A stretch of 45,825 nucleotides of DNA from Escherichia coli (GTDB lineage Bacteria > Pseudomonadota > Gammaproteobacteria > Enterobacterales > Enterobacteriaceae): NCBI RefSeq assembly GCF_003334765.1, contig NZ_QOWT01000032.1; one strand, given 5' to 3'. Numbering within the stretch: position 1 is the first letter of the stretch; every line of letters starts with the position of its first letter. The notes under the pieces are model-generated. The model saw only the letters and a list, made by a program, of their open reading frames with translations, did no database searches and was not told the origin of the DNA. The position numbers and the translations under genes were made by a program. Shown one piece after another: positions 665 to 40,065 of the stretch.

Positions 665-710
665 CAAAAATTTCGATGTAGATCACTCAACTGCTTATGA
701 TTCGCACGAC

Positions 711-740
711 ACGACCAGAAATAATGCGACTTCTGGTCGT
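711..740 (-). terminator. Perfect 10-bp stem / 10-nt loop hairpin just downstream of cpoB stop; no clear U-tract
   Basis: acgaccagaa ataatgcgac ttctggtcgt; placed 11 nt after the cpoB stop. Confidence 0.3.
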
Positions 741-750
741 GTGTTATGCA

Positions 751-1542
751 TTACATCGCGTTCAGACGTTTTTGTGCCTGTTTAGCGCCATCAGTACCAG
801 GGTATTTACTGATAACCTGCTGGTATACGGCTTTCGCTTTTGCGGTGTCACCTTTGTCCTGCATGATGACGCCGACTTTAAACATCGCATCTGCAGCCTT
901 TGGTGACTTCGGATAGTTTTTCACTACCGAAGCAAAATAGTACGCCGCATCATCTTTTTTACCCTTGTTGTAGTTTAACTGACCCAGCCAATAATTGGCG
1001 TTTGGCAGGTAAGTTGAATCAGGGTAATTTTTGATGAAATTCTGAAATGCCACCATTGCGTCATCCTGGCGGGATTTATCCTGCACCAGCGCAATAGCTG
1101 CATTGTAATCCGTGTTTGCATTACCGCTTTTCACCGGCGCGCCAGCATTCGCAGTACCAGCATCAGCTGTCGGCGTCGTTGATGCCGCCGCACCGCTTTG
1201 ATCGCCGCTGGTTGATTGCGCCGCTGCACCACCGCTGCTGAGGCTGTCGATCTGCAACAGGATCTGCTTTTGCCGCTCCACGACCTGATTCAGTTGATAC
1301 TGATTTTCCTGAATCTGACCACGCAGGGAATCAATATCGGATTGATTATCAGAAAGTTGTTGCTGGAGTTGGGTTAAAAGCTGGCTGTGAGCATTAGAAA
1401 TACGCTCAAGTTGAGTGACGCGGTCTTCGACCGAGCCTGAGCCGACACTACTGATTGGTGCCTGAGCAAAAGCGGCCCAGGGGGCCGCTATACCAACCAG
1501 TAACGACAGACTCAATAGTTGATGTCTGAAGTTACTGCTCAT
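751..1542 (-). CDS. cpoB: Cell division coordinator CpoB (YbgF), TPR-repeat periplasmic protein
   Basis: 263-aa ORF with signal peptide, coiled-coil region and C-terminal TPR repeats; last gene of the tol-pal cluster. Confidence 0.93.
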   Translation of the reverse strand: MSSNFRHQLLSLSLLVGIAAPWAAFAQAPISSVGSGSVEDRVTQLERISNAHSQLLTQLQQQLSDNQSDIDSLRGQIQENQYQLNQVVERQKQILLQIDSLSSGGAAAQSTSGDQSGAAASTTPTADAGTANAGAPVKSGNANTDYNAAIALVQDKSRQDDAMVAFQNFIKNYPDSTYLPNANYWLGQLNYNKGKKDDAAYYFASVVKNYPKSPKAADAMFKVGVIMQDKGDTAKAKAVYQQVISKYPGTDGAKQAQKRLNAM

Positions 1543-1551
1543 GCAATTCTC

Positions 1552-2097
<546 letters not shown>

Positions 2098-2107
2098 TTA
2101 ATTATTA

Positions 2108-3400
2108 TCACAGATACGGCGACCAGGCAGGGAATTTGACCTGTCCATCAGTTGCCGGAAGACGCGCTTTGAAACGCCCATCTGTAGAAACCAAATTCAG
2201 CACGGATCCCATCCCCTGAGAAGAGCTGTAGATTACCATAGTGCCGTTAGGTGCCAGACTTGGCGTTTCATCCAGGAACGTGGACGACAGAACTTGTACG
2301 CCTCCCGTTGCCAGATCTTGTTTGGCAATGTGCTGCTGCCCACCATTGGAGCTGACCATTACCATAAATTTACCGTCGCTGCTGACATCCGCATCCTGGT
2401 TCTGCGAACCTTCCCAGGTAATACGTTGTGGCGCACCGCCGTTGATATTCACTTTATAAACCTGCGGACGACCGGCCTGGTCAGAAGTAAATGCCAGGTT
2501 CTGGCTATCCGGGAACCAGGTCGGTTCGGTATTGTTACTGCGACCATCAGTCACCTGGCGGATCTGACCAGAAGCCAAATCCATTACGTACAGGTTCAGA
2601 CTACCGGTTTTCGACAAGGCGAATGCCAGTTTGCTGCCGTCTGGCGAGAATGCAGGTGCACCGTTGTGACGCGGGAATGAAGCCACCTGACGTACAGCGC
2701 CATTTGCCAGCGTCTGAATAACCAGCGCGGAACGACCGCTTTCGAAGGTCACATAAGCCAGTTTAGAACCGTCTGGTGACCACGCCGGAGACATCAGCGG
2801 CTGCGGTGAACGGTGAACGACAAACTGGTTGTAACCGTCATAGTCAGATACGCGCAGTTCATACGGGAACTGACCGCCGTTGGTCTGAACAACGTAGGCA
2901 ATACGAGTACGGAACGCACCTTTAATGCCGGTCAGTTTTTCAAACACTTCATCACTGGCGGTATGACCAGCATAACGCAGCCACTGCTTGTTCACTTTGT
3001 ACGAGTTCTGAGCAAGTACAGTACCCGGTGCGCCGCCAGTGTCAACAAGTTGATAAGCAACATTGTAAGAACCATCCGGATTCGGAGTGACCTGACCGAC
3101 AACTACAGCGTCAATGCCCAGTGCGGACCATGCAGCTGGTTGTACTTCCTGCGCACTACCCGGCTGCTGTGGCAGACGAGCGCGATCTAACGGATTAAAT
3201 TTACCGCTGTTACGCAAGTCAGCAGCAACGATGCCGCCAATATCTTCAGGTGCCGCACCAGGCCCCGCCCACTGGAAAGGAACAACACCAATAGGACGAC
3301 CGGAATCTACACCGCTGTCGATCACAATGCGGACTTCAGCATGCAGAACTGATGCCCACAGTATGAGAAAACCAAATGCTACTCGTAATGCCTGCTTCAT
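2108..3400 (-). CDS. tolB: Tol-Pal system periplasmic beta-propeller protein TolB
   Basis: 430-aa protein [21 protein letters not shown]...; start trimmed by one codon from the ORF. Confidence 0.95.
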
Positions 3401-3500
3401 CATATCTCCCTTATCTGGACCGATGGCCCACGATAATTTAGCAGAATGTTAACAAACTAAAATACACAAAACTACCAGAACCCCGTGGCAACCGGTGCCT

Positions 3501-3528
3501 GATGTTGACCGTCCGAACAGTCAACATC
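3501..3528 (-). other. Stem-loop (9-bp stem, 10-nt loop) in the tolA-tolB intergenic region
   Basis: gatgttgac ... gtcaacatc, 4 nt downstream of tolA stop; not followed by a U-tract. Confidence 0.4.
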
Positions 3529-3532
3529 GCGA

Positions 3533-4798
3533 TTACGGTTTGAAGTCCAATGGCGCGTTTTTGAACACTTCATATACTGCCTGGCTTGGTGGTTTCGGGA
3601 TCTTCGCAAGTTTAGCTGCTGCCAACGCAGCCTGACAAAGTGCGGGATCGCCACCTTCAGGTTTGATATCCAGTAACATACCATCGGGTGCCAGTTTTAT
3701 GCGCAGCGTACAGGTTTTGCCTGCATAGGACGATGCGTCATAGAACTTACTTTCGATAGCAGATTTAATCTGCCCGGCATAGTTATTGATATCGGCCCCT
3801 GATGCGCCATTGTTTTTAGTATTACCACTCCCGGCAGGCGAAGCATTGTTCCCTTTCGCCCCTCCCCCCGTTTTCGGTGCATTCTTACCAGAGCTTAGCT
3901 CACCGAAAATATCATCTGCCTCTGCGGCCGCTTTTGCTGCAGCGGCTTTTTCAGCTGCAGCTTTTGCCGCTGCCGCTTTTTTGTCTGCGGCGGCTTTTTC
4001 TGCCGCTGCTTTCTTATCAGCTGCTGCCTTTTCAGCAGCCGCTTTTTCTGCTGCTTTTTTGTCGGCTGCAGCTTTCTCTGCTGCCGCTTTCTTATCAGCT
4101 GCAGCCTTTTCAGCAGCCGCTTTCTTCTCAGCTTCTGCTTTGGCTTTTTCAGCAGCTTCAGTTGCCGCTTTCTTTCTTGCTTCAGCTGCAGCTGCTTCTG
4201 CCGCTTCCGCTTTCTTCTTCAGTGCCGCAGCGGCTGCCTCGGCTTTTTTCTGCGCTTCGGCTGCGGCTTTGGCGGCTTCTGCTTCTGCTTTTTTCTTTGC
4301 GTCTGCAGCCGCTTTCTTCGCTGCTTCTTCCGCAGCTTTAGCATCTGCTTCGGCCTTCGCTTTAGCATCTGCCGCCGCTTTCGCTGCCGCCTCTTCAGCT
4401 TGCTTCTGCTTTAACTCGGCCTGTTTTGCGGCTTCTTCAGCCTGCTTTTTCTGCTCCTGAGCCGCTAACCGCTCTTTCTCAAGTTGCTTCAGGCGTTCCT
4501 GTTCAGCCGCTTGTTTCTCACGCAGTTCTTCAGCAGCCTGCTGTTCCTTCATCTTGCGCTGTTCATCAGAACGCTTCGCGCTTGATTCCTGGCTTTGCAT
4601 GCGTTTGTACTGCTCAACTACCGCACCTGAATCAACCATGACAGCGTCGATGGACGAACCACCGCCGCCTCCGGCTGAAGCTTCTATATTCTCATCGAAC
4701 GAACTCCAGATCAGCGCCGCAAATAAGATGACATGCAGCACTGCTGAAATAATTATCGCCCGCTTGAGCTTGTCGTTTTGTTCGGTTGCCTTTGACAC
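3533..4798 (-). CDS. tolA: Tol-Pal system protein TolA (N-terminal TM anchor, long Ala/Lys/Glu-rich helical domain II, C-terminal domain III)
   Basis: 421-aa ORF; characteristic low-complexity domain II. Confidence 0.95.
   Translation of the reverse strand: MSKATEQNDKLKRAIIISAVLHVILFAALIWSSFDENIEASAGGGGGSSIDAVMVDSGAVVEQYKRMQSQESSAKRSDEQRKMKEQQAAEELREKQAAEQERLKQLEKERLAAQEQKKQAEEAAKQAELKQKQAEEAAAKAAADAKAKAEADAKAAEEAAKKAAADAKKKAEAEAAKAAAEAQKKAEAAAAALKKKAEAAEAAAAEARKKAATEAAEKAKAEAEKKAAAEKAAADKKAAAEKAAADKKAAEKAAAEKAAADKKAAAEKAAADKKAAAAKAAAEKAAAAKAAAEADDIFGELSSGKNAPKTGGGAKGNNASPAGSGNTKNNGASGADINNYAGQIKSAIESKFYDASSYAGKTCTLRIKLAPDGMLLDIKPEGGDPALCQAALAAAKLAKIPKPPSQAVYEVFKNAPLDFKP
3929..4514 (-). repeat. 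Imperfect tandem coding repeats encoding TolA domain II (KAAAEKAAADKKAA-type units)
   Basis: Visible DNA periodicity (gctgc/gccgc-ttt units); creates a 224-aa mirror ORF on the plus strand. Confidence 0.8.
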
Positions 4799-4862
4799 TC
4801 TCGGTTTCCAAAAACTGTTCGCCTGTTACCCGCTCTCTTTCAAGCAAGGGAAACGCAGATGT

Positions 4863-5291
4863 TTAGATAGGCTGCGTCATTAAACCAACCGATTTCACAC
4901 CCGCACTATGTAACAAGTTCAGTGCTTTAATTATTTCATCGTAAGGCACATCTTTTGCGCCACCGATCAGAAAGACCGTTTTCGGGTTGGCCTTGAAACG
5001 GCTGGACACTTCCGCCACCACCTGCTCTGGTGGTAAACGCTCCAGGCGATCTTTCTCAACCACCACGGTGTACTGACCAATACCAGACACTTCAACAATC
5101 ACTGGCGGATTATCGTTACTGCTCACCGCCTGTGATTCAGTAGCGTCTGGCAGATCGACCTCCACGCTCTGGGTGATGATGGGCGCTGTCGCCATAAAGA
5201 TCAGCAACAGCACCAGCAGTACGTCCAGCAACGGTACAATGTTGATTTCGGACTTGAGATCGCGACGACCTCGTCCACGCGCTCTGGCCAT
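4863..5291 (-). CDS. tolR: Tol-Pal system protein TolR (ExbD/MotB-like)
   Basis: 142-aa ORF, single TM, ExbD-like. Confidence 0.95.
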   Translation of the reverse strand: MARARGRGRRDLKSEINIVPLLDVLLVLLLIFMATAPIITQSVEVDLPDATESQAVSSNDNPPVIVEVSGIGQYTVVVEKDRLERLPPEQVVAEVSSRFKANPKTVFLIGGAKDVPYDEIIKALNLLHSAGVKSVGLMTQPI

Positions 5292-5294
5292 GGC

Positions 5295-6388
<1,094 letters not shown>

Positions 6389-6484
6389 TTTACATCCCGG
6401 TAATGCAACAAAAGTTAGAGCTTTTAAACGCTGCTACTATACGCGCGCGATTGAGGTTTGGGAATGAGGGCAAGTTAAGGGAGC

Positions 6485-6514
6485 GTAAAAATTTATGGGC
6501 CTGGAGCGGCCCAT
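6485..6514 (-). terminator. Rho-independent terminator downstream of ybgE (bidirectional-looking)
   Basis: Hairpin atgggcc-tggagc-ggcccat (6495-6514) flanked by T-runs on both strands. Confidence 0.6.
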
Positions 6515-6537
6515 AATTTTTTAAAGAGAATTCTGAT

Positions 6538-6831
6538 TTAAAAGAAGAAGAAAATCAGCCCGACAATGAGAACAATATCGGCAAGCAATGGGCAAAAAAT
6601 CCCTTGCCAAAGAACCTTCTGCGGACGAAAGCCCACGCCGTGAATCACACCAGCACAGACGGCCCACATCAGCAATAAACCATGCCAGATTTCCAGTTCA
6701 CTGGTCTTCGCGGCAAAACGAGATGGGTCCCAAAACATACATCCTGCTAACAGAAGCGCCATCACGAAGGAAAGCGCCCGCAGGGGGCGCTTGTCCATTA
6801 CCGCATACAAAGTCGCGATAATCTTACTCAT
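6538..6831 (-). CDS. ybgE: Small inner-membrane protein YbgE, cyd operon member
   Basis: 97-aa hydrophobic ORF immediately downstream of cydX. Confidence 0.9.
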   Translation of the reverse strand: MSKIIATLYAVMDKRPLRALSFVMALLLAGCMFWDPSRFAAKTSELEIWHGLLLMWAVCAGVIHGVGFRPQKVLWQGIFCPLLADIVLIVGLIFFFF

Positions 6832-6944
6832 CAGATGTCTTCTTGACCGGCTTTGCCTGATTCGACGTGTTCAAGCGCCAGCGCGGTGATTACCCCAAAC
6901 GAACAGGCAAGAAGCGTTCCCAGAATCCATGCGAAATACCACAT
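6831..6944 (-). CDS. cydX: Cytochrome bd-I oxidase accessory small subunit CydX (37 aa)
   Basis: Not in the ORF track. Minus-strand ATG at 6942-6944 preceded by AGGAG; translation MWYFAWILGTLLACSFGVITALALEHVESGKAGQEDI; stop overlaps ybgE start as TGATG. Confidence 0.9.
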   Translation of the reverse strand: MWYFAWILGTLLACSFGVITALALEHVESGKAGQEDI

Positions 6945-6958
6945 TTTTAGCTCCTTAC

Positions 6959-8098
6959 TTAGTACAGAGAGTGGGTGTTACGTTCAATATCTTCTTTGGT
7001 GATACGACCGAACATTTTCCAGTAACACCAGGCGGTGTAGAGCAGAATGATCGGTACCAGAACCACCGCAACCCAGGTCATGACGTTAAGCGTCAGCTGG
7101 CTGGAAGTTGCATCCCACATTGTCAGACTTGCGTTCATCATGGTGCTGGACGGCATCACAAACGGGAACATTGCGATACCGGCTGTCAGGATGATGCAGG
7201 CCAGCGTCAGGGAGGAGAACACAAACGCCCACGCGGCTTTATCCATACGTGCAGTCAGGATGGTCAGCAGCGGCAGAACCACACCCAGTGCCGGAATAGC
7301 CCACAGAATTGGCGTGTTGTTGAAGTTAACCAGCCATGCGCCAGCTTCACGAACCACTTCTTTATTCAGTGGGTTAGAGGCTGCGTAATGGTCCATTGTC
7401 GATTTCACGACATAACCATCGATACCGTACATCACCCATACGCCAGCCAGTGCGAAACAGACCAGTGTCACCAGCGCAGCCACCTGAGCCGTTGCACGGG
7501 TACGCAGGTGCAGTTCGCCCACGGTACGCATTTGCAGATAGGTTGCGCCCTGAGTAATGATCATCCCTACGCTCACCACGCCTGCCAGCAGGCCGAACGG
7601 GTTAAGCAACTGGAAGAAGTTACCGGTGTAGTACAGACGCAGATATTCATCAACGTTGAACGGTACGCCCTGCAACAGGTTACCGAACGCTACACCAATT
7701 ACCAGCGGCGGAACGAAGCTACCAATGAAGATGCCCCAGTCCCACATGTTACGCCAGCGGGTTTCTTCAATCTTGGAGCGGTAGTCAAAACCGACCGGAC
7801 GGAAGAACAAAGACGCCAGCACGAGGATCATCGCCACATAGAAGCCGGAGAACGCAGCGGCATAGACCATCGGCCAGGCAGCAAAGAGTGCGCCGCCCGC
7901 GGTGATCAGCCAAACCTGGTTACCGTCCCAGTGTGGTGCAATGGAGTTAATCATAATTCGACGCTCGGTGTCGTTACGACCGAGGAAACGGGTGAGCATG
8001 CCCACCCCCATGTCGAAACCGTCAGTGACTGCAAAACCAATCAGCAGAACGCCAACCAGCAGCCACCAGATAAAACGCAATACTTCATAATCGATCAT
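6959..8098 (-). CDS. cydB: Cytochrome bd-I ubiquinol oxidase subunit II
   Basis: 379-aa polytopic membrane protein. Confidence 0.96.
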   Translation of the reverse strand: MIDYEVLRFIWWLLVGVLLIGFAVTDGFDMGVGMLTRFLGRNDTERRIMINSIAPHWDGNQVWLITAGGALFAAWPMVYAAAFSGFYVAMILVLASLFFRPVGFDYRSKIEETRWRNMWDWGIFIGSFVPPLVIGVAFGNLLQGVPFNVDEYLRLYYTGNFFQLLNPFGLLAGVVSVGMIITQGATYLQMRTVGELHLRTRATAQVAALVTLVCFALAGVWVMYGIDGYVVKSTMDHYAASNPLNKEVVREAGAWLVNFNNTPILWAIPALGVVLPLLTILTARMDKAAWAFVFSSLTLACIILTAGIAMFPFVMPSSTMMNASLTMWDATSSQLTLNVMTWVAVVLVPIILLYTAWCYWKMFGRITKEDIERNTHSLY

Positions 8099-10367: not shown

Positions 10368-10466
10368 CCTGATGCGCTACGCTTGCCAGTGTCTACATCA
10401 TCTCTGCAATATATTGAATTTGCCTGCTTTTGTAGACCGAATAAAGCGTTCATGCCGTATCCGGCA
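10368..10466. repeat. Degenerate REP/BIME-like element downstream of mngB
   Basis: cctgatgcgctacgcttgcc ... gtagaccgaataaagcgttcatgccgtatccggca resembles REP Y and Z units. Confidence 0.5.
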
Positions 10467-10528
10467 TGAACAAAGCGCCCTTTGTCAACAATCTGGCCGC
10501 GCATATGTGGCTTCGGTTTGATTGCTAT

Positions 10529-28961: not shown

Positions 28962-31418
28962 ATGGACACCGTGAATATTTATCGACTCTCTTTTGTATCC
29001 TGCCTGGTCATGGCGATGCCTTGCGCAATGGCGGTCGAATTCAATCTGAATGTTCTCGATAAATCAATGCGCGACCGCATTGATATTTCATTATTAAAGG
29101 AAAAAGGAGTCATTGCTCCCGGTGAATATTTTGTTAGCGTTGCGGTGAATAACAACAAAATCAGTAATGGGCAAAAAATTAACTGGCAAAAAAAGGGTGA
29201 CAAAACCATTCCATGCATCAATGATTCACTGGTCGATAAATTTGGTTTAAAACCAGATATCCGTCAGTCCTTGCCACAGATAGATCGGTGTATTGATTTC
29301 AGTTCCCGACCTGAAATGCTCTTCAATTTCGATCAAGCCAATCAGCAACTGAATATTAGTATTCCGCAAGCCTGGCTGGCGTGGCACTCAGAAAACTGGG
29401 CTCCCCCCTCTACATGGAAAGAAGGTGTTGCCGGTGTCCTGATGGATTACAACTTGTTTGCCAGCAGCTACCGCCCACAGGACGGCAGCAGCAGCACTAA
29501 CCTGAATGCCTACGGTACCGCCGGAATTAACGCCGGGGCATGGCGCTTACGCAGTGATTACCAGCTTAATAAGACCGATAGCGAAGATAACCATGACCAG
29601 TCAGGCGGAATATCGCGCACCTATCTTTTTCGTCCATTACCGCAATTAGGCTCTAAGTTAACCCTCGGCGAAACCGATTTCAGTTCCAATATTTTCGATG
29701 GTTTTTCTTATACCGGCGCGGCACTGGCGAGTGACGATCGAATGTTACCGTGGGAGCTGCGTGGCTACGCCCCACAAATTAGCGGTATTGCACAGACCAA
29801 TGCCACGGTGACGATCAGTCAATCAGGCCGCGTCATTTACCAGAAAAAAGTCCCGCCAGGCCCGTTTATTATTGATGACCTCAATCAGTCTGTTCAGGGC
29901 ACGCTGGATGTCAAAGTGACGGAAGAAGATGGTCGGGTGAACAATTTCCAGGTTTCGGCAGCATCGACGCCCTTCCTGACTCGCCAGGGACAGGTTCGCT
30001 ATAAATTGGCCGCGGGTCAGCCACGGCCTTCCATGTCACATCAAACTGAAAATGAAACCTTTTTTAGCAATGAAGTTTCCTGGGGGATGCTCTCAAACAC
30101 CTCGCTGTACGGCGGCCTGCTGATTTCTGATGATGACTACCATTCTGCCGCAATGGGTATCGGGCAAAATATGCTGTGGCTTGGCGCACTGTCCTTTGAT
30201 GTCACCTGGGCCAGTAGCCATTTTGATACTCAGCAGGACGAGCGGGGCTTAAGCTACCGTTTTAATTACAGCAAACAAGTGGATGCCACCAACAGCACGA
30301 TTTCGCTCGCCGCTTATCGCTTCTCAGATCGTCATTTTCACAGCTACGCCAACTATCTGGATCACAAATACAACGACAGCGATGCGCAGGACGAAAAACA
30401 GACGATCAGCTTATCCGTGGGCCAACCGATTACCCCACTAAACCTCAATCTTTACGCCAACCTGCTACATCAAACCTGGTGGAATGCAGACGCCTCCACG
30501 ACCGCCAACATCACAGCAGGTTTTAATGTTGATATTGGTGACTGGAGAGATATCTCGATTTCGACGTCATTCAATACGACCCACTACGAAGATAAAGATC
30601 GCGACAACCAGATTTATCTGTCGATTTCGCTCCCCTTCGGTAACGGTGGTCGGGTTGGCTATGACATGCAAAACAGTAGCCACAGCACCATACACCGCAT
30701 GTCGTGGAACGATACGCTGGATGAACGTAATAGCTGGGGCATGTCTGCCGGACTGCAATCCGATCGTCCGGACAATGGAGCCCAGGTGAGCGGTAACTAT
30801 CAGCACCTGAGTTCAGCGGGTGAGTGGGATATTTCTGGTACCTATGCCGCCAGTGATTACAGTTCCGTCAGCAGCAGCTGGAGCGGTTCTTTCACCGCAA
30901 CCCAATATGGTGCAGCATTTCATCGCCGCAGCTCCACCAATGAACCACGCCTGATGGTCAGCACCGATGGCGTGGCAGATATTCCGGTTCAGGGCAATCT
31001 CGACTACACCAACCATTTTGGCATTGCGGTGGTGCCGTTGATTTCCAGTTACCAGCCTTCCACCGTGGCGGTGAACATGAATGACTTACCCGACGGCGTA
31101 ACAGTTGCAGAAAACGTCATCAAGGAAACATGGATTGAAGGCGCGATAGGTTACAAATCACTGGCTTCCCGTTCCGGTAAAGACGTTAACGTCATCATAC
31201 GCAACGCCAGCGGTCAGTTCCCTCCCCTCGGTGCGGATATCCGCCAGGATGACAGCGGCATTAGCGTGGGTATGGTTGGCGAGGAAGGACATGCCTGGTT
31301 AAGCGGTGTCGCTGAAAATCAACTGTTTACCGTGGTCTGGGGTGAGCAAAGCTGCATTATTCATCTGCCAGAACGTCTGGAAGACACGACCAAACGCCTG
31401 ATTTTACCTTGTCATTAA
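28962..31418 (+). CDS. ybgQ: Fimbrial outer-membrane usher (start uncertain: ATG 28962 or GTG 28971)
   Basis: About 815-aa ORF, PapC/FimD-like, signal peptide ...NIYRLSFVSCLVMAMPCAMA. Confidence 0.9.
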   Translation: MDTVNIYRLSFVSCLVMAMPCAMAVEFNLNVLDKSMRDRIDISLLKEKGVIAPGEYFVSVAVNNNKISNGQKINWQKKGDKTIPCINDSLVDKFGLKPDIRQSLPQIDRCIDFSSRPEMLFNFDQANQQLNISIPQAWLAWHSENWAPPSTWKEGVAGVLMDYNLFASSYRPQDGSSSTNLNAYGTAGINAGAWRLRSDYQLNKTDSEDNHDQSGGISRTYLFRPLPQLGSKLTLGETDFSSNIFDGFSYTGAALASDDRMLPWELRGYAPQISGIAQTNATVTISQSGRVIYQKKVPPGPFIIDDLNQSVQGTLDVKVTEEDGRVNNFQVSAASTPFLTRQGQVRYKLAAGQPRPSMSHQTENETFFSNEVSWGMLSNTSLYGGLLISDDDYHSAAMGIGQNMLWLGALSFDVTWASSHFDTQQDERGLSYRFNYSKQVDATNSTISLAAYRFSDRHFHSYANYLDHKYNDSDAQDEKQTISLSVGQPITPLNLNLYANLLHQTWWNADASTTANITAGFNVDIGDWRDISISTSFNTTHYEDKDRDNQIYLSISLPFGNGGRVGYDMQNSSHSTIHRMSWNDTLDERNSWGMSAGLQSDRPDNGAQVSGNYQHLSSAGEWDISGTYAASDYSSVSSSWSGSFTATQYGAAFHRRSSTNEPRLMVSTDGVADIPVQGNLDYTNHFGIAVVPLISSYQPSTVAVNMNDLPDGVTVAENVIKETWIEGAIGYKSLASRSGKDVNVIIRNASGQFPPLGADIRQDDSGISVGMVGEEGHAWLSGVAENQLFTVVWGEQSCIIHLPERLEDTTKRLILPCH

Positions 31419-33227: not shown

Positions 33228-33263
33228 GATGCCCTTTGCCGCCGGAAAGGGCATCTCTTTCAG
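33228..33263 (+). terminator. Rho-independent terminator of the ybgDQPO operon
   Basis: Hairpin gatgcccttt-gccgccgg-aaagggcatc followed by tctttc. Confidence 0.65.
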
Positions 33264-34417: not shown

Positions 34418-35205
34418 TGCTGGCAGCCAGGGCACCAGTAAAACGGGCGAGATGACAGCGTGGTTTTCTCAATGATGCTGCCACAACGTTCGCACGGTTC
34501 GCCATCTCGATGAAAAACCTTAAAGCGAAACAGCGCCCCATGATGCTTATTCTCATCCACCTGCCCCCGCGTAGCGTAGGAAAATCGAGGAATCTCCAGT
34601 AACGCGTGTGCGAGTGCATCCAGTTGCGCCGCATTGAGATCTTTCGCTTTATGATTTCCAGTCAACCCAACCTGCCAGAGGATCTCCACCCGCAAATAAT
34701 TGCCAAGCCCAGCCAGAAACGCCTGATCGAGCAGTAATCCAGCAAACTGACAGTTACGAAAGCGCGGCGACAATAATCGTTCTTTCACCACCTCCGGCGT
34801 CAGATTCGGATCCAGCACATCGGGACCAACGCGTTGTAAAAACGGATGCGTGGTCAGTTGTTCCGGGGTCAACATCTCAATATCCGAGGCGCTATAAAGC
34901 AGAATGGTTTTGTCAGCCGTTTGCAGTTTTACCCGCAATACTCGCGTGGTCTGCGGCTCTTCGCCGGTATCAACCACGCGCCAGACGCCGTAAAGCTGAT
35001 TATGGCTGTAGAGCGTTAAGTCGTTGGAAAAATGAGTTAACAACGCCTTACCACGCGTTTCCACATGGGTAACGTGTTGACCGATAAGTTGTGATTGATA
35101 AGGTTTTAACTGCGGGAAGGCAAACCAGACATCAGTTAGTGGTTTGCCTTTGATCGCCGCCTCCAGGTTATCCGCTGCACGGCGGATCTCCGGGCCTTCA
35201 GGCAT
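34414..35205 (-). CDS. nei: Endonuclease VIII (DNA glycosylase/AP lyase)
   Basis: 263-aa ORF beginning MPEGPEIRR (catalytic Pro2/Glu3) with C-terminal zinc finger CERCG...CPGCQ. Confidence 0.96.

Positions 35206-38400: not shown

Positions 38401-40065
<1,665 letters not shown>

Follow-up and report, generated by a model that had tools for sequence, protein, structure and literature searches.

Intercistronic stabiliser hairpins, which give rise to differential mRNA stability within an operon, are among the closest described relatives of the stem-loop considered here; one lies in the Rhodobacter puf operon, and another is reportedly provided by the REP sequence between malE and malF, in work said to be that of Newbury and Higgins in 1987. 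The stem-loop after tolA in Escherichia coli likewise sits at the 3′ end of an upstream cistron in a polycistronic unit, where it would be expected to shield the upstream segment from 3′ exonucleases. It differs from the malE-malF REP in being present in one copy per genome and not as a dispersed repeat, and from both systems in that the upstream tol genes are the less abundant ones. A further related class, described by Dar & Sorek 2018 (PMC6061677), is formed by the protective 3′ stem-loops of Rho-dependent transcripts, for which a role in blocking PNPase and RNase II is proposed. Like those loops, the tolA hairpin is stable, lies near the gene end and lacks a U-rich tail or an upstream A-tract. 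In contrast to them, it is internal to an operon with a promoter ~70 nt downstream, the RNA that follows it is richer in G than in C whereas theirs is mildly richer in C, and neither a Rho region nor a steady-state 3′ end is listed for tolA or tolB by Adams et al. 2021. The tolA hairpin thus lacks two defining features of the Rho-associated class, namely a Rho region and RNA of rut-like composition downstream. With an intrinsic terminator it shares a stable hairpin near the stop codon, but it has no U-tract, transcripts read through it and no 3′ end is mapped to it (Adams et al. 2021).

The seven-gene tol-pal cluster has so far been described rather coarsely in terms of its control, as two overlapping transcription units, ybgC-...-cpoB and tolB-pal-cpoB (PMC6013679). 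The copy numbers of its products are very unequal, with 500-2000 copies of TolA, TolQ and TolR, ~6000 of TolB and ~60000 of Pal (PMC7066135), or ~1:10:100 for TolA:TolB:Pal. The present analysis, made on a 45,825-nt stretch of an E. coli contig (hereafter the window), puts the elements of the tolA-tolB junction in order, namely a conserved hairpin, a tolB promoter block with a 5′ hairpin and the mapped start sites, and places the first hairpin on the tolA side of the boundary. The 221 nt around the stem-loop recur with an identity of 95% or more in every one of the 5426 complete E. coli genomes, and RefSeq annotates the match as tolA/tolB. Two of the 5429 matches to the junction fall on plasmid-labelled records, so that some E. 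coli genomes hold two copies. The features framing the stem-loop are as follows.

3533..4798, minus strand: tolA coding sequence, 421 aa (RefSeq annotation)
3533..3535, minus strand: tolA stop codon UAA, with the hairpin beginning 4 nt downstream
3501..3528, minus strand: tolA stem-loop, 12 bp as tolA-sense RNA, with a UCGG loop
2108..3403, minus strand: tolB coding sequence, 430/431 aa (RefSeq annotation)

The initial annotation had described a stable stem-loop between tolA and tolB, consisting of a perfect 9-bp repeat with a 10-nt spacer that starts 4 nt past the tolA stop codon, and this description holds in full. On the plus strand the repeat occupies 3501-3509 (GATGTTGAC) and 3520-3528 (GTCAACATC), and the stop codon TAA lies at 3535-3533. 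In the tolA-sense RNA, three extra pairs (U3519.G3510, G3518-C3511 and U3517-A3512) close most of the 10-nt loop, extending the stem to 12 bp, among which 3519.3510 is the one U.G wobble. The 5′ arm (3528-3517) then reads GAUGUUGACUGU, the loop is a UCGG tetraloop at 3516-3513, and the 3′ arm (3512-3501) reads ACGGUCAACAUC. The 28-nt hairpin folded alone has a ΔG of -15.7 kcal/mol; in its 41-nt context the value is -17.8 kcal/mol (z = -4.46, with none of 200 dinucleotide shuffles as stable), and the structure is kept in folds of 151-, 165- and 223-nt contexts.

Perfect hairpins of at least 9 bp are more frequent in the 45.8-kb window than in shuffled sequence (8 versus 1.3). Judged from the sequences compared, the decisive point against a chance origin of the tolA hairpin is that the structure is kept across genera. 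At up to three mismatches the hairpin matches one place in the window, and the median number of matching places in an E. coli genome is also one; as a single-copy element it is not a REP/BIME or other dispersed repeat. An Rfam scan of window positions 2000-7000 at E ≤ 1 gave no relevant match, the sole hit being a spurious miRNA on the opposite strand. Six further perfect hairpins of at least 9 bp lie at 6493-6516, 10448-10471, 29063-29084, 33228-33255, 35117-35150 and 38461-38494; that at 6493-6516, upstream of ybgC, has T-runs on both sides and resembles a bidirectional terminator.

The comparison across species was based on 80 tolB loci from Enterobacteriaceae species representatives, from each of which the spacer between the tolA stop and the tolB start was extracted. 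The spacer measures 117-132 nt in most of the 80, and in most of them the hairpin starts 0-9 nt past the tolA stop. A stem-loop follows tolA in almost every genus of the set, yet the sequences that form it are wholly different; a common form is UUUUCCCCG-N4-6-CGGGGAAAA, while the arms in Kluyvera are UUUUUCGCG and CGCGAAAAA. Beyond the Enterobacteriaceae, a stem-loop of unrelated sequence is present soon after the tolA stop in Pantoea, Yersinia, Pectobacterium and Edwardsiella as well. The first 48 nt past the stop have a median fold z of -2.4 among 77 unique sequences, and column identity is 0-50% in the hairpin versus at least 90% in the block at 3474-3428 and in the ribosome-binding region.

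The pairing itself also covaries. When 60 sequences were aligned by unguided MAFFT (A1) and scored over a 10-pair helix, 84.9% of the cells were paired versus 75.3% in shuffles (0 of 500 shuffles reaching the observed figure), statistics which overstate independence because the orthologues are phylogenetically related. Changes on both sides are seen at all ten pairs, and the covariation score is 0.382, compared with 0.207 in shuffles and 0.09-0.19 after a shift of the partners by 1-3 columns. More weight attaches to this slid-partner control and to the count of unrelated stem sequences than to the shuffle statistics. A covariance model built from the MAFFT alignment gave 64 matches with E < 0.001, all of them in sense orientation at the tolA stop; all its other matches were weaker and fell on the opposite strand of the same palindromes, and an alignment based on the model reproduces the pairing and covariation figures. 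From the raw alignment, RNAalifold recovered no more than the four central pairs.

Two properties of the orthologous stems point to a role at the level of RNA in the tolA mRNA. First, U.G wobbles, which equal A.C mismatches on the other strand, are frequent. Second, in 60 of the 77 unique sequences the sense RNA folds more stably than its antisense counterpart, with an excess over the expectation from base composition of -0.88 kcal/mol (p = 0.0013). Another conceivable role is that of a binding site recognised by its sequence, be it an operator in the RNA to which a regulatory protein or a small RNA binds, or a palindrome in the DNA bound by a dimeric regulator of the tolB promoter. In its favour, the palindrome adjoins a promoter, and the small RNA RprA co-purifies tolB-pal-cpoB mRNA (Lalaouna et al. 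2018, PMC5861431); RprA also lowers translational fusions by 35-50% in that study. However, stem and loop sequences are both unconserved, which argues against sequence-specific recognition, the G.U wobbles disrupt the DNA palindrome, and the message pulled down with RprA is tolB-pal-cpoB, whose main start lies downstream of the hairpin. We therefore consider a binding site extremely improbable.

Across 5426 E. coli genomes the stem hardly varies, and the polymorphism commonly seen affects the loop, with UCGG in K-12 and the window and UCCG in ST131 and O157. Variants of the stem are a C-G pair changed to U.G in one strain and a C.A mismatch in one E. coli strain and a cryptic Escherichia. Beyond the species, the hairpin of E. 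albertii is replaced by another, strongly sense-biased stem, whereas in Enterobacter cloacae and hormaechei (L053/L055) the hairpin is nearly lost (-3.4 kcal/mol) and in Kosakonia oryziphila (L070/L074) it is deleted along with most of the spacer, of which 54 nt are left. The losses in the Enterobacter and Kosakonia lineages have no obvious compensation. The hairpin is evidently dispensable, since a few lineages have a weak one or none and some sequences of the E. coli clade carry a C.A mismatch in it.

A further alternative is that the palindrome has no dedicated function and is tolerated, for example as a by-product of repeated recombination at the tolA 3′ end, or that it simply prevents this 3′ end from pairing with the neighbouring RNA. 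The lineages with a lost or weakened hairpin, the C.A variants and the lack of a 3′ end at the hairpin in the lists of Adams et al. all agree with that, as does the apparently mosaic nature of the tolA 3′ end, where two families of the TolA C-terminus seem to have been exchanged between genera. It is nevertheless a rather unlikely account of the element, because independent, unrelated sequences give rise to a stem at this position in several Enterobacterales families, the compensatory changes affect 10 of 10 pairs and exceed both shuffled and slid controls, and the polymorphism within E. coli is concentrated in the loop.

The two allele families of the TolA C-terminal domain end in ...VYEVFKNAPLDFKP and ...VYEKIKDAKLDFKL (L001-L080; window 3533-3860) and differ across at least the last 110 residues. 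Both occur within Citrobacter, Enterobacter and Lelliottia, while Salmonella has the second. The sequences suggest recombination or an ancient polymorphism as the source of this mixing across genera, and perhaps it is driven by the colicins and phage proteins that bind the C-terminal domain.

The stable, G+C-containing stem-loop of an intrinsic terminator is present at the tolA stop (12 bp, -15.7 to -17.8 kcal/mol), but no U-tract follows it. The 3′ flank is AGGCACCGGU, with no U among the next 8 nt, the longer flank AGGCACCGG is also free of a U-tract, and a terminator scan called nothing at the hairpin. In the 79 orthologous spacers the tolA hairpin is likewise never followed by a U-tract; a hairpin plus U-tract pattern of any kind occurs in seven of them and never involves the tolA hairpin. 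A canonical intrinsic terminator is therefore rejected, in line with the initial annotation, which had considered a simple terminator unlikely from the E. coli sequence.

For comparison with mapped RNA ends, window positions were converted to those of K-12 MG1655 (NC_000913.3) as 781130 minus the window position, anchored on 3′ ends for which Adams et al. 2021 print sequences (780434 = window 696 and 779674 = window 1456); the tolA hairpin then lies at K-12 777602-777629. Term-seq across the junction had been proposed as a check, and the curated lists of Adams et al. 2021, which cover three growth conditions, contain no 3′ end at the hairpin or elsewhere in 777590-777649, the tolQRA message being of low abundance. 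Neither tolA nor tolB is named in the Term-seq and Rho tables of that study, and no Rho region is given there, whereas a primary 3′ end, an internal 3′ end and a Rho region are all listed for cpoB; the TERMITe supplement also has no entry for tolA or tolB. Rho-dependent termination in the spacer was rejected for this reason and because the RNA downstream of the hairpin, rich in U and G with a C/G ratio of 0.5-0.7 in 78-nt windows, has more G than C and is not rut-like. As a Rho route to a 3′ end is thus unlikely, a route by cleavage must be assumed.

Transcripts also pass the hairpin. For capped full-length transcripts that begin inside tolA, the recorded extent includes tolB, pal, cpoB and the tRNA genes (PMC6131387), and since they contain tolB and the genes downstream, RNA polymerase passes the tolA hairpin. 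Protein abundance, moreover, climbs across the tolA/tolB junction, a rise that an attenuator cannot produce. The proposal that the stem is a partial attenuator setting the tolB-pal-cpoB expression ratio is thus unsupported, given the absence of a listed 3′ end or Rho region, the read-through transcripts and the direction of the expression change, and is rejected as a main role. Promoters and translation mainly account for the step in expression, and attenuation at the stem does not, as a mapped start site at 3430 and a nearly invariant promoter-like block both lie downstream of the hairpin.

A weaker form of this idea would have the hairpin act as a non-canonical terminator or pause site, that is, a partial attenuator or insulator which cuts read-through from the ybgC/tolQ promoters upstream into the tolB promoter region, thereby sparing the tolB promoter from occlusion or trimming the share of long transcripts in tolB-pal-cpoB expression. 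A stable hairpin at a conserved position directly upstream of a promoter would suit such a device, two transcription units have been described at the locus (PMC6013679), and with only 4 nt between stop codon and stem, formation of the hairpin could depend on ribosome occupancy. The missing U-tract in E. coli and in the 79 orthologous spacers, the lists of Adams et al. with neither a 3′ end nor a Rho region, the capped long-read transcripts that continue from inside tolA into tolB and beyond, and the rise of expression across the junction all speak against it, and we regard it as unlikely.

A hairpin that stimulates recoding, either SECIS-like or promoting stop codon read-through, was also rejected, since the tolA stop codons of the orthologues vary (UAA, UAG and UGA) and the E. 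coli frame closes four codons on (UAA UCG CGA UGU UGA). The proximity to the stop codon has, however, one further conceivable meaning. A ribosome terminating at the tolA stop codon would, from its footprint, cover the 5′ arm of the hairpin, and the element might therefore sense translation, with the terminating tolA ribosome having to melt the stem and the hairpin forming only when no such ribosome is present. The one hint of this is the conserved closeness to the stop codon (0-9 nt in nearly all orthologues), and we consider it very improbable. Were it true, translation of tolA would be coupled to pausing or release of RNA polymerase before the tolB promoter or, alternatively, to protection of untranslated transcripts only from exonucleases or to access to the U-rich spacer, and the output of TolQRA and TolB-Pal would be coordinated.

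Downstream of the hairpin, the junction contains three further elements.

3476..3500, minus strand: variable spacer after the hairpin, of low sequence conservation, with more G than C and not rut-like
3431..3457, minus strand: near-invariant block GTTTGTTAACATTCTGCTAAATTATCG, 27 nt, with at least 90% column identity in 79 sequences
3416..3430, minus strand: small hairpin UGGGCC-AUC-GGUCCA, beginning exactly at a mapped tolB start

Within the variable spacer (3476-3500) lies a weak 4-bp mini-hairpin, GGCA-CCGGU-UGCC. The near-invariant block contains TGcTAAATT (3443-3435), similar to an extended -10 element, is recognisable in Yersinia, Pectobacterium and Edwardsiella as well, and is probably the core tolB promoter, located downstream of the tolA hairpin. 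It is kept far more tightly than promoters usually require. Operon variants beginning with b0740 (tolB) are included in the SMRT-Cappable-seq data of Yan et al. 2018 (PMC6131387, Supplementary file 4). Two of the tolB triphosphate 5′ ends, K-12 777700 and 777712, fall downstream of the hairpin at window 3430 and 3418, the former 5-7 nt past TGcTAAATT. Another five 5′ ends of tolB transcripts, K-12 777537, 777472, 777441, 777393 and 777328, lie inside tolA at window 3593, 3658, 3689, 3737 and 3802, upstream of the hairpin (PMC6131387), and the leaders of these transcripts would carry it. A promoter-like match inside tolA (3638-3609) was discarded as a tolB promoter, as its -10 hexamer is not conserved and it agrees poorly with the mapped start sites.

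The small hairpin at 3430-3416 is separate from the tolA hairpin and marks the start of the promoter-proximal transcript; the Shine-Dalgarno sequence AAGGGAG follows just downstream at 3412-3406. Its stem covaries across genera (GGGC/GCCU, GGGUAA/UUACCC and GGAU/AUCC), and it looks like a 5′-terminal stabilising stem-loop of the tolB-pal-cpoB mRNA. In E. coli, a long-range pairing of 3499-3477 with 3433-3412 on the minus strand (-20.3 kcal/mol) appears in the 151-nt fold, but was set aside as a lineage-specific coincidence: it is not conserved (mean of -12.0 within the same species versus -11.4 across species, p = 0.23), drops to -6.3 and -8.4 in L001 and L003, which are close relatives, and in larger folds gives way to a local hairpin before the ribosome-binding site.

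The tolA hairpin is a single-copy, structure-conserved RNA element in the tolA 3′ UTR, before the main tolB promoter. With the start at 3430 downstream of the stem, the promoter-proximal tolB message does not contain it, and it is present in the read-through transcripts from upstream and in those starting inside tolA. Hairpins at the 5′ end can themselves protect a message, as in the paradigm of the papBA and ompA leaders, and the tolA hairpin might do so for a processed tolB-pal-cpoB mRNA if RNase E cut the long transcript, or transcripts starting inside tolA, just upstream and the stem then slowed decay that depends on the 5′ end. Its presence in the leaders of transcripts starting at 3593-3802 and in the read-through transcripts would allow this, and the conserved structure is that of the sense strand. 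On the other hand, transcripts from the main tolB start (3430) are already provided with a conserved 5′ hairpin of their own (3430-3416), the 4 nt between stop and stem show no sign of a cleavage site, and the tightly conserved distance is that to the tolA stop and not to tolB, all of which makes 5′ protection quite improbable.

A role at the other end of the message appears to fit better, and our preferred, although tentative, reading is that the tolA hairpin bars the way to 3′ exonucleases and so shields the ybgC-tolQRA portion of the mRNA. An RNase-protective structure was one of the two roles offered in the initial annotation; the anatomy and the pattern of conservation fit that proposal, while a 3′ end that might accompany it is not listed by Adams et al. 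2021. The reading draws on the stable stem without a U-tail right after the stop codon, the conservation of structure and not of sequence, and the sense-strand bias. What characterises a stabiliser hairpin, namely a stem-loop at the 3′ end of the upstream cistron that is under selection on its structure, is found here. Since no 3′ end appears in Adams et al. 2021 and some lineages lack the hairpin, we would put the chances of the barrier at somewhat below even.

The barrier function and the way in which the 3′ end arises are both steps that we infer. The long ybgC-tolQRA-tolB... transcript would be cut in the U-rich, single-stranded spacer, in whose sequence the RNase E preference RN|WUU appears to be matched several times, or transcription would end somewhere downstream. 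Decay from the new 3′ end would then halt at the foot of the stem, leaving the tolQRA segment intact with the whole tolA reading frame. In such a scheme the hairpin would uncouple the decay of the low-abundance tolQRA mRNA from that of the high-abundance tolB-pal-cpoB mRNA, and would neither stop RNA polymerase to a large extent nor set the levels of TolB and Pal.

The mechanism so proposed is an ordinary one and the conservation is clear; the hairpin opens no new mechanism. A full-text search, whose scope did not extend to the sequencing and transcript papers of 1989-1997, found no paper discussing the tolA stem-loop. If the barrier reading is true, the element would be one more protective stem-loop lacking a U-tract, situated within an operon instead of at its end. 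This would be useful for annotation, and deletions of tolA or tolB that remove the spacer could alter the stability of the tolQRA mRNA.

A parallel in favour of the barrier reading is found where this operon ends.

709..742, minus strand: cpoB hairpin ACACGACCAGAA-N10-UUCUGGUCGUGU, a 12-bp perfect stem 8 nt past the cpoB stop codon (753-751)

Like the tolA hairpin, the cpoB hairpin has 12 bp, lies near a stop codon and is free of a U-tract; unlike it, it has a primary 3′ end 13 nt downstream, at K-12 780434 (window 696; Adams et al. 2021). SMRT-Cappable-seq operons nonetheless run past the cpoB hairpin into the lysT-valT tRNA cluster, whose tRNAs lie at 221-586. Further inside cpoB, the signal-peptide region (1456-1490, minus strand) contains a terminator-like GCGGCCC-CCU-GGGCCGC followed by UUUUGCU, and the internal cpoB 3′ end is at K-12 779674 (window 1456), with the Rho region at 779749 (Adams et al. 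2021).
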